Assembly: GCA_017465945.1 (NCBI GenBank)
Contig: JAFTVD010000008.1
Coordinates: 14,091 to 78,090, forward strand
Direction: 5' to 3'
Length of the DNA stretch: 64,000 bases
Origin: Alphaproteobacteria bacterium
GTDB lineage: Bacteria > Pseudomonadota > Alphaproteobacteria > RF32 > CAG-239
Shown here: positions 9,598 to 45,547 of the stretch, piece after piece
Position numbering within the stretch: position 1 is the first letter of the stretch
Layout of the letters: every line of letters begins with the position of its first letter
Program-made: the position numbers and the translations under genes
Notes under the pieces: model-generated
Seen by the model: the letters and a program-made list of their open reading frames with translations, nothing else
Told to the model about the DNA's origin: nothing
The model's database searches: none

Positions 9598-10950
9598 ATG
9601 CATTTAAGGTCATTATCAAGAATATTATTTATCTGCTCTTTTTTTGTGGCAAATAGCAGTTTTGCAGGAGAAAAGCTCAGAGTATATGAGGCAAATGCTC
9701 CAAAAAATTGTTTAGATAAAAATATTGTCTCAAAACAAAAGGTATCGCTAATAGATTTAATTAAAATAGGAATTTGTAATAATCCAAGCTTAAACGCTGA
9801 TTATATGTCTTATCTTGAAAATAAAGAAAATTTATCTTCTGCAAAATCAGAGTATTTTCCTGATATAAACTTAAATGCAGGATTAAACAAAACTCATTCC
9901 AAAAACCAAGGAAACTATAGTAAAGAAACAGATCCATATAACCTAAATTTAGGTTTATCACTAATGTTATATGATTTTGGAGGACGTAGCGCAAGAATAG
10001 ATGGTTTCAAATCATATTTAGCAAGTTCTGGTTTTAATTACAATAGAGCTCTACAAGATTTAATTTTATCAATACATACTGCATATTTCAAACTATTGGG
10101 TGCAAAAGAAGACTTAACAAGTGCAAAAGCAAATGAAGCAATGTATAAAAAATCTTATGATGAAGCAAAAAGAAAATATGATGTAGGACTAGTTGCTCTT
10201 AATGATAAATTACAAACACAAACTAGCTATGAGCAATCAAAGTTAAAAGTAATAGAAACAGAAAATGCTGTAAAACAATATGAGGGAGATTTAGCAATAA
10301 TATTAAATTTACCTCCGTCAACAACTTTTAAATTAAAAGAACCACCTAAAGATAGAGATTTAACAGCATTAAACAAAAAAGATACTTTAGAAAAAATGAT
10401 AGAGCACGCTTCAAAAGAAAGATTTGAAGTAAAAGCACAAGAAGAAAGCATAAATCAGGCAAATCTTAGTTTACAAGAACTACGTTCATCTCGTTATGGT
10501 ACTATCTCGCTTTCTGCAGAAAGTGGTTATAATAATTCTTGGAATAGCAATTATTCATATAAAAAAGACAGTCAAATAGGTCTAAACTATCGTTTGCCTT
10601 TATTTACAGGATTTGAAACAACCCACAAAATAAAGGCAACTAAATTAAAAAGAGATAAAGAACGTCTAATGTTAGATGATGTAAAAAATAAAATAAAAAA
10701 TGAAGTTTGGAGTGCATATCATGACTACCAAACATCTCTAAAATCATACGAAGTAAGTAAAAAATTGTTAAAAAGTGCTGAAGAAAATGAAAAAGTAGCA
10801 TTTAAATCCTATGAAATAGGCAAAACAGATATTATAAATCTACTAACAGCAGAATCTCAATTAGCAGATGCAAGAGATACATTAGTAAACGCTTTTTATA
10901 CAGTATTAATAAATAAATCAACCTTATATCGTTCAATCGGGAGGTTTTAA
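9598..10950 (+). CDS. TolC-family outer membrane efflux protein
   Basis: 450 aa: signal peptide (FVANSSFAGE) and two OEP repeats with the typical LSLIDLIKIGICNNPSL opening. First gene of a 4-gene efflux operon. Confidence 0.8.
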   Translation: MHLRSLSRILFICSFFVANSSFAGEKLRVYEANAPKNCLDKNIVSKQKVSLIDLIKIGICNNPSLNADYMSYLENKENLSSAKSEYFPDINLNAGLNKTHSKNQGNYSKETDPYNLNLGLSLMLYDFGGRSARIDGFKSYLASSGFNYNRALQDLILSIHTAYFKLLGAKEDLTSAKANEAMYKKSYDEAKRKYDVGLVALNDKLQTQTSYEQSKLKVIETENAVKQYEGDLAIILNLPPSTTFKLKEPPKDRDLTALNKKDTLEKMIEHASKERFEVKAQEESINQANLSLQELRSSRYGTISLSAESGYNNSWNSNYSYKKDSQIGLNYRLPLFTGFETTHKIKATKLKRDKERLMLDDVKNKIKNEVWSAYHDYQTSLKSYEVSKKLLKSAEENEKVAFKSYEIGKTDIINLLTAESQLADARDTLVNAFYTVLINKSTLYRSIGRF

Positions 10951-40548: not shown

Positions 40549-41266
40549 TAGCTTAAAATTAGGAATATCTGGTTTGATCTTAAGCTCAAGTCTTTCTATG
40601 GCTACAGAAATAGATACAAATTCTGCTCTTATGCAGGCGATGGATAAAGTTACAGGAAGGGTAAATAAAATTACTGTTCCTGTTAACTCAAAAGTATCAT
40701 ACGGTGATTTTTCATTTGTATTACGTTCTTGTAAAAAACGTCCTGCAGAAGAAACTCCAGAAAACTTTGCTTTTGTAGATGTTGCAGATAAAAGTTTTGG
40801 AGAGGAAGAATATAATATTTTTAGAGGTTGGATGTTATCTTCAGCTCCTGGTGTTAACGCAATAGAACATCCGATATATGATGTTTGGTTGTTAGAATGT
40901 GTGGATTCTGATATATCAAATGCTGTATTTCTAACAAAAGAAGAGTTAAATGTTAGAGATAATTTACCAAGTAAAGATATTATTCAGGCTCAAAAAGATG
41001 ATATAAATATTCATGAAAGTGGTGAAAATATTCAAGAGTTAAAAGCAAAAGAGCCAAAAGCTATTCATATTGAAAATTTTATTCAAAAAGATAGGGATAT
41101 TGAAAAAAATATAAAAATACCAACAGATGAGGTGAATATTTCTAAAGAAGAAATGCCTGAGAATTTATTAGCCCAAACAATAGGCGAAAATAAAGAAGAT
41201 ACAGAAACAAATGATGAATTATCTAAGGCTATAGATGAAGAAATCAAAAAAATAAACGAAGATTAA
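40535..41266 (+). CDS. DUF2155-domain protein with a ~110-aa charged C-terminal extension
   Basis: Signal peptide, then ALMQAMDKVTGRVNKITVPVNSKVSYGDFSFVLRSCKKRPAEETPENFAFVDV (DUF2155-like pattern). The mlaD-DUF2155 neighbourhood is typical of Alphaproteobacteria. Confidence 0.6.
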   Translation: MKISNSLKLGISGLILSSSLSMATEIDTNSALMQAMDKVTGRVNKITVPVNSKVSYGDFSFVLRSCKKRPAEETPENFAFVDVADKSFGEEEYNIFRGWMLSSAPGVNAIEHPIYDVWLLECVDSDISNAVFLTKEELNVRDNLPSKDIIQAQKDDINIHESGENIQELKAKEPKAIHIENFIQKDRDIEKNIKIPTDEVNISKEEMPENLLAQTIGENKEDTETNDELSKAIDEEIKKINED

Positions 41267-42816
41267 AAGCTAAAAATATAAATACATACAGATAATATTG
41301 CATATATAATAGATATAGAAAACAATATATTTTGTTTTGGTTTATTTGAAGCAAACAATTTTCCAATAAATAAAGCTTCAGGTAATAATAATAGGATAAA
41401 TAATCTATAGTCAGATGAGCATATATAAGGATAATCTAAAGCATATTTTATTGCATAAATCCATGAGCATAAATATGTTATTGCAAAAAATATCCATAAT
41501 GCCTTACAGGCTATATTCTTTCTCATAAATATATAAACCATACCAATAAATGCACAAACTTTTAATGATAAACTTAAAATATAAAGAATAAATGATGGGA
41601 TATATATTGATTTATTTAATATACTAAAATTCCATTCCCCAAAAAGCTCTGTTTTAATGATTGCTAAAATCATATTTGCATCAACATCATATGGCGCATT
41701 CATAAAAGGAGAAAATAGTTTAGAAAAATCACCGATTCTATCTGTAAGCGATAGATATTTAAAATTTTGCCCCATAGGAGATGTGTCAGGAACATTATAG
41801 AACTGCATATCAAATAGAATGTGGTTTCGCATAATCCATAATAAGGCAACAGGAACAGCAATAATTACAAACAAAGCTATCCCTCTAAGTACTAATTCTT
41901 TGTTTTTTTCTGTTGTTAATTTATATAAAAATACCCATGAAATAGCAGGAGCTAGCAGTAAAATAGACAATTTTGTTAATGTTCCAAGTCCAAGCCCTAG
42001 TGCAACCAGTATAATATAAATTAGTTTGTTTGTATAATACCATTTAATCAAGAAATAAGTTGTAAACACACTCCAAAATAATACTGGAACATCATCAGAA
42101 ATATACCCCGTAAATAAGATAAATGTTGGGTTAAATATAAGTAGTATAAAAATAGCTTTATATGTAACGCCTCTAAACTTTAATAGATATAAAATTTTAG
42201 CAATTAAAACAGAAGTGATAGTAACATAAAATAACGAGAAGTATTGTAAGCTCTCAATGGATATTGTTTGAGATTTCCATAATAAGGTGCTAAACCTTAA
42301 AAAGTACTCCATAAGAATAAAGTGTAGTGGTTGATGAAAGAAATAGTACATATACCACGGATCAAAATTTTTCCAGTTGATGCCGTTCTCTGCAATTTTT
42401 TTCATATAATAAAGCGTTCCGCTTAGGTCATGTTGTCTAAAGTCTATATCTGTATGCACAATGTAAAACAAGTGCACCAAAAAAGATATAAATATAGCAT
42501 AAAAAGTAAAGTGATGAACATTTTTATTATCATTAAATGCGGTATATATAATTTGCAAAATTTGAATAATTAATAAGAATTGATTACTAACAGAAAAATA
42601 AGCATTTAATACCAAAAAAATAATTGATATTAAAAATATAAAAAATCTATCAATATATTTTTTTTGCAAAAGTATAATAAATAAAGATATTGCAATATAA
42701 TTTATTTGATAGTTGTTTATATTAAAATTATAAAAAAACATGCCTGCCGTTATAAAAAACAGCAGACATGTTCCTAAAACAAATAATATTGGGTGTTTCA
42801 ATAATAAATTAAACAC
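41263..42816 (-). CDS. Polytopic membrane protein, GT-C (ArnT/PMT-like) glycosyltransferase fold suspected
   Basis: 517 aa with more than 12 hydrophobic segments. Loop DFRQHDLSGTLYYMKKIAENG...FFHQPLHFIL and later GYISDDVPVLFWSVF resemble GT-C family 39/83 loops. 13-nt gap to the upstream lipoprotein gene. Confidence 0.45.
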   Translation of the reverse strand: MFNLLLKHPILFVLGTCLLFFITAGMFFYNFNINNYQINYIAISLFIILLQKKYIDRFFIFLISIIFLVLNAYFSVSNQFLLIIQILQIIYTAFNDNKNVHHFTFYAIFISFLVHLFYIVHTDIDFRQHDLSGTLYYMKKIAENGINWKNFDPWYMYYFFHQPLHFILMEYFLRFSTLLWKSQTISIESLQYFSLFYVTITSVLIAKILYLLKFRGVTYKAIFILLIFNPTFILFTGYISDDVPVLFWSVFTTYFLIKWYYTNKLIYIILVALGLGLGTLTKLSILLLAPAISWVFLYKLTTEKNKELVLRGIALFVIIAVPVALLWIMRNHILFDMQFYNVPDTSPMGQNFKYLSLTDRIGDFSKLFSPFMNAPYDVDANMILAIIKTELFGEWNFSILNKSIYIPSFILYILSLSLKVCAFIGMVYIFMRKNIACKALWIFFAITYLCSWIYAIKYALDYPYICSSDYRLFILLLLPEALFIGKLFASNKPKQNILFSISIIYAILSVCIYIFSF

Positions 42817-42829
42817 AAATCAAATCCTA

Positions 42830-44677
42830 TTAAATGTCATCAGTAGAGCAAGCTGTACCGATTCTGCATTTGTGATATACTTTTGCTCTTCTATAGCCTG
42901 TTAAACCTTTATATTCCATTGTTTGAATATATATATTATTAACAGTAATAGTAAATCCAAGTACAGCAACATTTCCAGAGTTATCTAAAGCATACACTTT
43001 TATACGGTGGCTACCTGCATCATCAAGAGTTGGATGACCTGTAAATGTATGAGTTTTTTCATCATACTTTAACCATGTTGGAAGTCCAGCATCATCAAGA
43101 GAGCCTGCAACAGTCTTGTATTCGCCATCCCAATTTACTTGTTCAAATACTTCATCTGGAATTTTAATACTAACATCAGTGCCAACACCTGTAACAACAT
43201 CAGGTACTAAAACTTGTGATGAAATATCAACAGGAGGCTTTTTATTAGACAATGGTGCATTTTCTTTTGGTGATGCTACAAAAATACCTTCTTTCCAATT
43301 ATCTAAAGTTTCTCTAATTTTGATTGCAATTTTAGAAGGATTCTCAGAAAGCAATTCCATTGGAATAGTGTCCATGCCTACACTAGCATACAATCTACCA
43401 ATAGATTCTTGAACATCAATATAAGATAAGAAAGCATTAGCTTCATCAATTATTGCTCTAGCCGATTCTAGGTGGCTAATAGCTTTATCAGCACCTTCTT
43501 TATCTGTGATATCTTCTGCAATATCTTCAGATGTTGTAGCAACACCTAAATCTAGGTAATAATCTTCAACAGAAGCTTGGTATAAAGCCCATGCTAAATA
43601 TACTTGGTTAAGTACAATATTAGTCATACGTTGACGAGCAAGGGAATTATATGTAGCTTCATTTTGATAACGTATATCCTCAAAAACATTCATAGATAAA
43701 TCATTCGATTCCTTTGACCATTTACGATTATAGTAATTAGGGTCTTGGCGATAATCGCTATTATCAATTTCTTCCATGTCTTTTATAACTAATTCTAATT
43801 CTTCTTTTGTCGTAATAGTGTCAAAAGAACGCAATTCTGGACGATTCGTCAAAGCTAGCCATTCAAGTTGCTGTAATTTTGCTCTCATAGAAGGAACAGG
43901 GAAATTTCCATATTCAGCACCTGCTAATTTTATTTCAGTAGATGGATACATTCCAAGCAAGCCTGCAAATTCAGCTTGAGCTGTGTCAAATTTTTTCCTC
44001 AAATCAGCAAGCTCTCTAATGCTTTCTAAATATTTACGTTTTTTAAGCAATAAACTTGTAGAAGGAGTCTTGCCTGCTTTAATTAACTCGTTAGAACGAG
44101 AACTTAATTCATCAACCACTCTAACAAGGTATTCGTTCATATCATCTATAACAGGGATAATACGTTGAGCACTTAATGCTTTCCAATACAAAGTGCGAGC
44201 CTCTAACATAATGTTGTTTATAACTTTTCTGCTTTGTTCTTCAGCAACAATATCTTGAGCAACGGCATTTTGATAATAAAGAGAAGATAAGTCTAGTAAG
44301 TTCCAAGACACTTTCAAATCAGCTGGTACAGCATCTGAATAAGAAGCATTTTCATAACCTAGATTTTCTGCCATTGTTGGTAAAACAGAAGGAGATATAT
44401 TTGTTTTTATAAGGTTTTCCTGATAGCTGGCCAATCTTCTAGTGTAATTGTATTTGAGAGCTAAAGCCATAGCCATATACATATCAACAGGTTTAGTAAT
44501 TTTTGATGGAGTACCTATATACATATTTTGCATGTCTACATCAGCCCTAACAGCTCTATCCCAGTCTGAGTAATATGCAGACATAACAGGAGCTTCTGTA
44601 GATTGTTCATAAGTCGTAGTAGAGCAAGCTGTAATAATACTAACTAATCCACTAATAAAATAAATATACCTTTTCAT
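42830..44677 (-). CDS. Outer-membrane-factor (TolC/NodT)-like lipoprotein with a C-terminal cadherin-like/Ig (He_PIG-type) domain
   Basis: 615 aa. Lipobox SIITAC (Cys18). OEP-like helices (VDMYMAMALALKYNYTRRL, EEQSRKVINNIMLEARTLYWKALSAQ, LEWLALTNRPELRS). Residues ~488-581 match the dystroglycan-type cadherin-like pattern (GLPTWLKYDEKTHTFTGHPTLDDAGSHRIKVYALDNSGNVAVLGFTITV). Confidence 0.6.
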   Translation of the reverse strand: MKRYIYFISGLVSIITACSTTTYEQSTEAPVMSAYYSDWDRAVRADVDMQNMYIGTPSKITKPVDMYMAMALALKYNYTRRLASYQENLIKTNISPSVLPTMAENLGYENASYSDAVPADLKVSWNLLDLSSLYYQNAVAQDIVAEEQSRKVINNIMLEARTLYWKALSAQRIIPVIDDMNEYLVRVVDELSSRSNELIKAGKTPSTSLLLKKRKYLESIRELADLRKKFDTAQAEFAGLLGMYPSTEIKLAGAEYGNFPVPSMRAKLQQLEWLALTNRPELRSFDTITTKEELELVIKDMEEIDNSDYRQDPNYYNRKWSKESNDLSMNVFEDIRYQNEATYNSLARQRMTNIVLNQVYLAWALYQASVEDYYLDLGVATTSEDIAEDITDKEGADKAISHLESARAIIDEANAFLSYIDVQESIGRLYASVGMDTIPMELLSENPSKIAIKIRETLDNWKEGIFVASPKENAPLSNKKPPVDISSQVLVPDVVTGVGTDVSIKIPDEVFEQVNWDGEYKTVAGSLDDAGLPTWLKYDEKTHTFTGHPTLDDAGSHRIKVYALDNSGNVAVLGFTITVNNIYIQTMEYKGLTGYRRAKVYHKCRIGTACSTDDI

Positions 44678-44809
44678 AAAAGTTTCCCTCTAATATTATC
44701 CTTTAACTAAATGTCTACACTATTTTTTTTTTAATTGATAGTATTTTATTTGATTTTATACAACTTTAATGTAAAATAACATATAATGAAATAAAATTTT
44801 GGTGGGAAT

Positions 44810-45547
44810 GTGATGTTTGATATATTTTATACACTATTTAGATATAAGGATAAAGCACAAAACGAAGAGTTAGGTTATTATCCAGAAAAGGTTGATGTAA
44901 AAGCTTTTCCAGAAAGAAGATATTTGTGGACATCACGTTTTTTTGTTGTGATATCCTGTCTTAGTTTGTGTGTTAGTATGATTCTCGCAAGTGTGTTATG
45001 TATAATGATACCTAAGAAGAAATCTTATATTATGCCTCTGCAAATAGATTACAAACGTTATCAAGTAACAAGAATGGAGTATTCAGAATACGAAGCATAT
45101 GCAGGTAATCTTGTGACAGAAAGTGTTTTAAATGATTATATTATAAAAAGATATACAATAGGCGATTCGTTTGAGGAACTTACACATAGGTATAGTGATA
45201 ATGAATTTCTTAAATTAGCAACAAGTGACGACGTGTGGGGAGAGTTTGAGCAAACCGAACGACCATACTTTGAGGCAATGCAAAGACAAGGTGTTCGTCG
45301 TAAAGTAGAGGTAGAAAATAGTTACCCTGTATCATTTAATTTTTGGCAAGTGCGATTTAATACAATAGATACAATACCAGGAAAAGAAAAACCATTAATA
45401 AGTAAATGGCTAGCATCCATAAGAATGACTTTTAATTTTTCAAGATATGAGGATAAAGATTTAGGATTAAAAAATCCATATGGTACTAATATTGTTACAT
45501 ATAATTTGTCATATCTCGGAAATAACATCAAAAGTGTAAGAAAATAA
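44810..45547 (+). CDS. VirB8/DotI-like type IV secretion inner-membrane component, orphan copy
   Basis: 245 aa bitopic protein (TM helix FFVVISCLSLCVSMILASVLCIMI). By-eye alignment to A. tumefaciens VirB8: MPLQID vs EPFVVRVD, FWQVRF vs LIQVRY, KWLASIRMTFNFS vs HWVSILNFSY, KNPYGTNIVTYNLSY vs INPLGFQVSEYRSD. Confidence 0.6.
   Translation: MMFDIFYTLFRYKDKAQNEELGYYPEKVDVKAFPERRYLWTSRFFVVISCLSLCVSMILASVLCIMIPKKKSYIMPLQIDYKRYQVTRMEYSEYEAYAGNLVTESVLNDYIIKRYTIGDSFEELTHRYSDNEFLKLATSDDVWGEFEQTERPYFEAMQRQGVRRKVEVENSYPVSFNFWQVRFNTIDTIPGKEKPLISKWLASIRMTFNFSRYEDKDLGLKNPYGTNIVTYNLSYLGNNIKSVRK

Follow-up and report, generated by a model that had tools for sequence, protein, structure and literature searches.

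The window analysed here is a stretch of 64,000 nt (contig JAFTVD010000008.1, positions 14,091 to 78,090 of the forward strand, assembly GCA_017465945.1) from an alphaproteobacterium with a genome of 1.55 Mb in 27 contigs; the G+C content of the window is about 30%. On its minus strand lies a gene for a lipoprotein of 615 amino acids (aa), which a sequence-only reading had described as a TolC/NodT-like outer-membrane factor (OMF) fused to a cadherin-like immunoglobulin (Ig) domain, followed after 13 nt by a gene for a 517-aa polytopic membrane protein (41263..42816, minus strand). Both open reading frames (ORFs), their coordinates and the 13-nt spacing proved to be as described. The fusion of the OMF module with the Ig domain is confirmed as real rather than a chance product, because full-length, stop-free copies occur in 149 of 150 high-quality genomes sampled, across 20 genera, from an order of uncultured gut alphaproteobacteria. 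The gene and the parts of its product are as follows:

42830..44677, minus strand: gene for the whole OMF-like lipoprotein of 615 aa, including its C-terminal Ig domain (ORF; Pfam OEP and He_PIG)
44624..44677, minus strand: predicted lipoprotein signal peptide, residues 1-18, with lipobox IITAC, Cys18 and Ser at +2 (sequence reading)
43283..44581, minus strand: divergent TolC/OMF module, residues ~33-465 (hhalign, AlphaFold, Foldseek)
43205..43282, minus strand: Pro/Lys-rich linker, residues 466-491 (low predicted local distance difference test score, pLDDT, at 469-476; 30% identity between genera)
42869..43204, minus strand: He_PIG/dystroglycan-type cadherin-like beta-sandwich, residues 492-603 (Pfam, PDB profile, Foldseek)
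42833..42868, minus strand: C-terminal tail with two nearly invariant cysteines, C604 and C610 (alignments A1 and A2)

The assignment of the protein to the TolC/OMF superfamily of lipoproteins, and of its C-terminal part to the dystroglycan-type cadherin-like domains, is one on which Pfam, hhalign, a PDB profile search and Foldseek agree. The lipobox VSIITAC and the motifs VDMYMAMALALKYNYTRRL and LEWLALTNRPELRS were all located in the protein, and Cys18 of the lipobox is invariant among the 22 sequences of alignment A1, as in a NodT-type lipoprotein. Both Pfam families that the sequence-only reading had anticipated for the lipoprotein scored above their cut-offs. OEP matched residues 70-242 at 23.1 bits (cut-off 22), with a single repeat detected, and He_PIG (PF05345) matched residues 492-580 at 36.5 bits (cut-off 24), covering profile positions 9-96 of 96. 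The NCBIfam TolC model TIGR01844, whose cut-off is 225, gave 23.3 bits. A profile of the family aligned to the canonical TolC encoded elsewhere in the window (9598..10950) over residues 94-384, thus across both repeats (hhalign 86.7%, E 4e-6), and the PDB profile search with the Ig domain returned dystroglycan (E 1e-12) and SraP. The Ig domain is slightly wider than the 42935..43216 first assigned to it, spanning ~42869..43204. The OMF module itself consists of a conserved N-terminal motif, four long helices and two hairpins that are shortened and charged; conservation within the module is highest in the N-terminal motif (76% identity between genera) and in the equatorial region (61%).

The lipoprotein is a single-copy core gene of the order: it is almost always the only match in its genome, at identities of 43-83%. 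Named relatives include ‘Proteobacteria bacterium CAG:495’ and ‘Candidatus Scatocola faecigallinarum’, both uncultured gut or rumen Alphaproteobacteria. In the sole high-quality genome without the gene (G116), the flanking PepF-like and NrdD genes are likewise absent, which makes an assembly gap probable; for the same reason, the joint absence from G116 of the lipoprotein and a nearby VirB8 paralog was dropped as a sign of linkage. Among 14 genomes from the class's other families, none yielded the OMF module; in one there were only matches to He_PIG repeats of giant proteins. A library clustered at 50% identity held only about ten full-length clusters, and the remaining strong matches were giant He_PIG-repeat proteins in which the Ig domain alone aligned. 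Current database records label the protein either ‘TolC family protein’ or ‘putative Ig domain-containing protein’, neither of which is adequate by itself, and searches of the literature on TolC with He_PIG, on the order with type IV secretion, and on DUF4347 returned nothing on such an architecture.

Two single-chain AlphaFold predictions, one from a 22-sequence alignment and one from a 40-sequence alignment including canonical OMFs, gave the same overall picture (mean pLDDT 76 in both). The long antiparallel helices of an OMF were modelled at residues 141-200, 207-240, 340-394 and 399-433 (pLDDT 85-94), and a beta-sandwich at 494-603. Searched against the PDB with Foldseek, the helical part returned TolC, OprM, OprN and CusC at the top (E about 1e-5). 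The C-terminal domain returned dystroglycan cadherin-like, SraP and Rib domains, as befits an Ig-like beta-sandwich, with 8uf4, 9c3c, 5llk and 4m03 aligned over 90-106 columns at a root-mean-square deviation (rmsd) of 1.8-3.9 Å (3.2-3.5 Å for 8uf4 and 9c3c). Neither monomer run placed a single beta-strand at the expected barrel hairpins (residues 91-140 and 289-339), the first of which was modelled as short helices and the second at low confidence.

The sequences of these hairpins point the same way. Compared with relatives that have canonical hairpins, the window's family lacks ~23 aa of hairpin 1 and has two smaller deletions, of 6 and 7 aa, around hairpin 2, the stretch of the OMF module with the lowest conservation (38% between genera). 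Strand S4, which in the relatives starts with ‘LPxLxL’, starts with ‘VIKDMEEIDNSDY’ or similar in the family, whereas strand S2 is retained. When 31 family sequences were set against nine canonical-hairpin relatives, the remaining strands differed as follows:

S1: charged residues per 12, 1.5 in the family and 2.2 in the relatives; best-face hydropathy, -0.14 and 0.87
S4: charged residues per 12, 4.9 in the family and 1.6 in the relatives; best-face hydropathy, -0.46 and +1.37
S5: charged residues per 12, 3.5 in the family and 1.0 in the relatives; best-face hydropathy, 0.02 and 1.64

The four amphipathic strands per protomer of a 12-stranded OMF barrel were thus found neither in the sequence test nor in the monomer models, and the OEP score falls along the lineage from 139 and 132 bits in forms with a SPOR domain, through 77 bits in an orphan ortholog, to no match in the sister family and 23 bits in the window. 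The membrane pore is likely to have been lost or strongly altered, and the earlier suggestion of an outer-membrane channel becomes doubtful with hairpins so degenerate. Compared with the lipoprotein OMFs of the NodT/OprM group, the 615-aa protein shares the lipobox cysteine, the long helical hairpins and, judging from the profile alignment, apparently the two-repeat architecture, and such OMFs are its top fold matches. It differs from them in its shortened and charged hairpins, its marginal OEP score and a TIGR01844 score far below the cut-off, in the extra C-terminal Ig domain and cysteine tail, and in the lack of an adjacent pump partner.

The origin of this unusual protein can be traced in a wider subfamily. 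A search seeded by a distant ortholog retrieved about 20 clusters of ~680-aa proteins with OEP and He_PIG from other uncultured Alphaproteobacteria and, beyond them, hundreds of OMFs of ~500 aa, some of which end in other domains. In such relatives Pfam detected SPOR at residues 565-633 of 640, 588-663 of 668 and 666-745 of 799, OmpA at 627-725 of 734, and He_PIG at 571-660 of 731. The closest relatives outside the orphan group are OMFs that end in SPOR, OmpA or He_PIG; they are 25-35% identical and have the same layout, and two of them carry He_PIG. Four of these genes, all on metagenome contigs (L129, L130, L144 and L145), share one type of operon, whose genes encode, in order, a giant DUF4347/cadherin-repeat protein of 1636 or more than 3500 aa, the OMF, a ~250-aa membrane fusion protein (MFP) adaptor, a ~440-455-aa protein and a ~705-aa M50 peptidase/HlyD-like fusion. 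This combination of DUF4347/cadherin protein, OMF and M50-HlyD fusion is apparently a recurring, undescribed export operon. Unlike the window's protein, the OMFs of the giant-adhesin operons have canonical hairpins, OEP scores of 96-139 bits with two repeats, and transporter and substrate genes alongside. The 615-aa protein, for its part, has gained a DWDRAVR-type N-terminal motif and a CxxGxxC tail and is without those operon partners, none of which was found in the window's genome. In the LapE-LapA system, a case of type I secretion, a giant adhesin is retained in a TolC-like OMF. The 615-aa protein resembles LapE in being of the TolC family and in having relatives encoded beside giant repeat adhesins, but no adhesin, ATP-binding cassette (ABC) transporter or MFP of that kind was found in this genome, and the comparison bears on ancestry, not on present function.

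A rival explanation is that the protein is a working trimeric outer-membrane exit duct for pumps encoded elsewhere, like the orphan TolC of Escherichia coli, with the Ig domain as a periplasmic anchor or docking module only, comparable to SPOR or OmpA in its relatives. The homology to TolC across both repeats, the OMFs at the top of the Foldseek list and the relatives that are OMFs of real secretion operons all fit this explanation. The lipoprotein OMFs of the NodT/OprM group are, moreover, the usual partners of resistance-nodulation-division (RND) pumps, and the genome holds a TetR-MFP-RND operon without an OMF of its own (C25:7097-12004). The absence of an adjacent adaptor or pump gene, remarked on from the window alone, holds at all 30 loci whose gene neighbourhoods we read (29 of the window's family and the remainder of the sister family), and no adaptor or transporter was assignable to the lipoprotein. 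The TolC-MacAB operon inside the window and a complete MFP-RND-NodT operon (C16:86049-91727) each include an OMF for their pump, and the C25 pump could use an orphan canonical TolC (C16:46305-47675), so that the pumps of the genome are already served and a duct role for the 615-aa protein is not needed. The hairpins, 13-23 aa shorter than those of the relatives, also speak against a duct, as do the lost amphipathic pattern of S1, S4 and S5 (with 3.5-4.9 charged residues per 12 in S4 and S5), the strands missing from both AlphaFold runs, the 23 bits against a cut-off of 225 for TIGR01844 and the ancestral operon partners not found in the genome. We consider a working duct somewhat unlikely.

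The same missing operon partners, the degenerate barrel hairpins and an OEP score barely above the cut-off might suggest that the gene is a decaying, functionless remnant of a lost secretion operon. However, 149 of 150 high-quality genomes, 1.3-2 Mb in size, hold it as one intact copy, its N-terminal motif and equatorial region remain 76% and 61% identical across genera, and two nearly invariant cysteines and a promoter-like region upstream are conserved as well. A remnant is accordingly the most improbable of the explanations that we weighed, and we give it hardly any credence.

The Ig domain comes after the last equatorial helix of the OMF module. The termini of OMFs, including the C-terminus, are periplasmic, and the SPOR and OmpA domains are periplasmic binders of peptidoglycan. 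Because the relatives hold SPOR or OmpA at the same position and OMF termini are periplasmic, the He_PIG domain is most likely periplasmic too, rather than surface-exposed, by analogy with these relatives. The sequence-only reading had instead envisaged an outer-membrane channel or scaffold whose Ig domain is displayed outside the cell for adhesion or recognition and which is possibly glycosylated by the glycosyltransferase C-type (GT-C) membrane protein encoded downstream. The peptidoglycan-binding domains at the equivalent position would place that domain on the other side of the membrane. The genetic elements that bear on the glycosylation part of the proposal are these:

41263..42816, minus strand: 517-aa polytopic GT-C (PMT-like) protein with about 12 hydrophobic segments (Pfam PMT)
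42734..42775, minus strand: terminator-like hairpin with a 15-18 bp stem and a U-run, inside the 5′ end of the GT-C ORF (scan; RNAalifold)

The 517-aa protein is polytopic and matches PMT (PF02366), the protein O-mannosyltransferase family, at 28.8 bits (cut-off 22.7), a match limited to profile positions 75-233; the PMT_2 family suggested earlier reached 20 bits, under its cut-off of 26.1. A simple hydropathy scan puts a D-I-D at residues 123-125, a candidate for the acidic catalytic motif that GT-C enzymes carry in their first extracytoplasmic loop, in the loop after the third hydrophobic segment. Within the window's genus the proposed co-transcription is borne out: the GT-C gene starts with a Shine-Dalgarno sequence and a GTG codon 13-25 nt past the lipoprotein stop, and its first residues are conserved. 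Since this spacing leaves no room for a promoter, the GT-C must, as judged from the sequence, be translated from the same transcript as the lipoprotein. Two further observations favour glycosylation. The residues after the lipidated cysteine are Ser/Thr-rich, typically STT, in this genus only, and a different putative GT-C-like membrane protein gene stands beside the lipoprotein gene in the sister family. PMT enzymes modify Ser/Thr-rich linkers of this kind in actinobacterial lipoproteins, and by analogy the STT linker would fit O-glycosylation by a PMT-like enzyme, which is only a lead. The correlation between Ser/Thr linker and GT-C is weak, because it represents a single phylogenetic event.

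The pairing of the two genes is, however, restricted to the window's genus. Among the 30 loci, the GT-C lies downstream of the lipoprotein only there (identity 44-52%), and other genera have NrdD/NrdG or other unrelated housekeeping genes in its place. The 517-aa family is present in three of three genomes of the genus, with three paralogs each, and was found in none of 38 genomes from 22 other genera, all of which keep the lipoprotein. The terminator-like hairpin, 40-80 nt into the GT-C ORF, is kept in all ten loci of the genus, and RNAalifold gave it 15 pairs, three of them with compensatory changes; its sequence also codes for part of the first membrane helix of the GT-C. It looks like an internal attenuator that would hold the level of GT-C low. 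A genus-restricted gene behind such a hairpin is a poor candidate for the functional partner of a lipoprotein found family-wide, and we consider a surface-exposed, glycosylated adhesin improbable. One GT-C paralog in the window's own genome (C14:19796-21262, 25% identity) has an in-frame TAG and is possibly a pseudogene.

On the other side of the lipoprotein gene the neighbourhood is far more constant:

44734..44767, intergenic: core of a ~60-nt block between the divergent lipoprotein and VirB8 genes (20 loci; alignment A4)
44810..45547, plus strand: VirB8 paralog, 245 aa, bitopic (Pfam VirB8, 42.8 bits)

The VirB8 paralog matches PF04335 over profile positions 19-210 of 213 (42.8 bits against a cut-off of 23.2), with one N-terminal hydrophobic segment visible in its sequence. 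It is divergent from and adjacent to the lipoprotein gene in 29 of 29 loci of the window's family, while in the sister family it lies 1.9 kb off with one gene, the putative GT-C-like membrane protein, between. It is the only neighbour conserved across the order, and the sequence-only reading had made no use of it; all others vary. Conservation of the ~60-nt intergenic block extends across genera with protein identities of only 36-49%, although the block is less clear in one genus (L014 and L016); it appears to hold back-to-back promoter-like hexamers. It had no Rfam family match. A regulon motif common to type IV secretion system (T4SS) genes was considered for it and dropped, as the block is unique in the genome.

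The paralog is 26-27% identical to the VirB8 proteins of the main T4SS cluster and lies outside this cluster, which holds its own VirB8 next to VirB9. In a relative of the same genus, the main cluster starts with three small VirB2-like genes, VirB4 (819 aa) and several unknown genes, and continues with two VirB8-like genes, VirB9 (633 aa), a 2093-aa repeat protein, VirB10 (1415 aa) and VirB11. Among high-quality genomes of the family, VirB4 is present in 35 of 36, VirB9 in 34 of 36 and VirB10 in 36 of 36. The family's VirB10 (1400-2300 aa) and VirB9 (515-640 aa) are far above the usual size. In the window's genome VirB4 and VirB9 were not found, and contig C9 begins inside the gene that follows VirB9 (the 2093-aa gene); this contig holds giant proteins, VirB10, VirB11 and five or six VirB6-like genes. 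The 615-aa protein recalls the VirB7/VirB9/VirB10 outer-membrane core in that it is lipidated and contains a beta-sandwich, and in that its gene adjoins one of the VirB8 family in a lineage whose T4SS is conserved, but it has no relation in sequence or fold to VirB7 or VirB9. It does not replace VirB9 or VirB10, because the family has its own copies in the main cluster, and a role as a VirB9/VirB7 replacement in a reduced T4SS was dropped, since the relatives keep VirB4 and VirB9 there.

Our data are most consistent with a model, held tentatively and at a little less than even confidence, in which the protein would be a TolC-derived, lipid-anchored helical assembly in the periplasm that has its Ig domain there too and is regulated jointly with the VirB8 paralog. 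The protein derives from an OMF branch with an extra C-terminal domain (SPOR, OmpA or He_PIG), most likely periplasmic, whose operons export giant cadherin-repeat adhesins. In the gut order, where the transporter partners were not found, it has become a stand-alone core gene, and in the window's family the two barrel-building hairpins have been shortened and filled with charged residues. The domain composition, the conservation, the neighbourhoods, the degenerate strands and the descent of the subfamily are shown, and the place of the Ig domain in the periplasm, the loss of the pore, the pairing with VirB8 and any connection with the T4SS are inferred. What is left may be a lipid-tethered helical assembly, probably a trimer, hanging from the outer membrane into the periplasm, with the cadherin-like domain and the disulfide-capable tail beside the equatorial region. 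Such a protein would not be a surface adhesin, and would probably not be an open exit duct either. The VirB8 paralog belongs to the inner membrane and has one domain in the periplasm. It shares the conserved, putatively regulatory divergent region with the lipoprotein, and the two would most likely act together as an envelope-spanning accessory, plausibly for the unusual T4SS of the family. The GT-C would have been added downstream in this genus only, and would be expressed no more than read-through of the internal terminator-like hairpin allows. The boldest form of the model, in which an ex-channel TolC protein serves as a periplasmic strut and makes up, with the VirB8 paralog, a new two-part envelope module, possibly an accessory of the T4SS with giant VirB9 and VirB10, in a widespread family of gut Alphaproteobacteria, we regard as unlikely as it stands.

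Several observations weigh against this model. The case for barrel loss consists of sequence and of monomer models with pLDDT 40-80 in the barrel regions, and a short, unusual barrel could still form in the trimer. The TM-scores of the Foldseek matches to TolC are 0.3-0.48 with a large rmsd, which indicates that the helical packing is poorly modelled. The TetR-MFP-RND operon on C25 could in principle use the 615-aa protein. The link to VirB8 and the T4SS consists of adjacency and a shared conserved intergenic block, within this order only, and orthologs in three other lineages had no VirB8 within the ~1 to 10 kb of flanking sequence that was read.

To our knowledge, TolC-family proteins are treated as obligate trimeric exit ducts. 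If the model is correct, a degenerate barrel together with a periplasmic Ig domain would mean that the TolC fold can be re-used for something besides a pore. The analysis also brings out an uncharacterized OMF branch with C-terminal SPOR, OmpA or He_PIG domains, whose members are part of an undescribed export operon for giant adhesins that includes a fusion of an M50 protease with HlyD. The hosts, with genomes of 1.5 Mb, are common but uncultured inhabitants of human and animal guts, and a core envelope gene tied to T4SS genes would bear on their interaction with the host or with neighbouring bacteria.

Orthologs in other lineages have neighbours of other kinds. In two of these lineages an orphan ortholog stands beside or near secreted cysteine-rich proteins (L127:13091-14626 and L045:3280-4044), one of them a 511-aa protein with ‘CPSGQY...C.S.K..YQ.C’ repeats. 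In two further alphaproteobacterial lineages, a ~300-aa acidic secreted protein without a family match is encoded directly upstream of the ortholog (L141:7099-8004 and L143:7100-7999), its gene overlapping the ortholog start codon in L141 and abutting it in L143, which suggests a different, lineage-specific partner. As partners of the window's protein, both the ~300-aa proteins of L141 and L143 and the cysteine-rich proteins of L127 and L045 were set aside, as counterparts were not found in the window's genome.

The T4SS genes on contig C9 of the window's genome have unusual features of their own. At C9:856-11648 are encoded a protein of 1770 aa, truncated by the start of the contig, and one of 1473 aa, both composed of dozens of short repeats of the ‘G-x-V/I-x-D-x-x-G-x-x-I-G’ type; the 1473-aa protein ends in a TrbI/VirB10 domain, and the next gene encodes a VirB11-like ATPase. 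Further along the contig (C9:60499-68191) lies a tandem array of five or six genes for VirB6/TrbL-like polytopic proteins (444, 449, 434, 187, 315 and 734 aa), next to which are genes for an 888-aa acidic repeat protein and a 449-aa lipoprotein without a family match. The array resembles the multiplied VirB6 genes of Rickettsiales.

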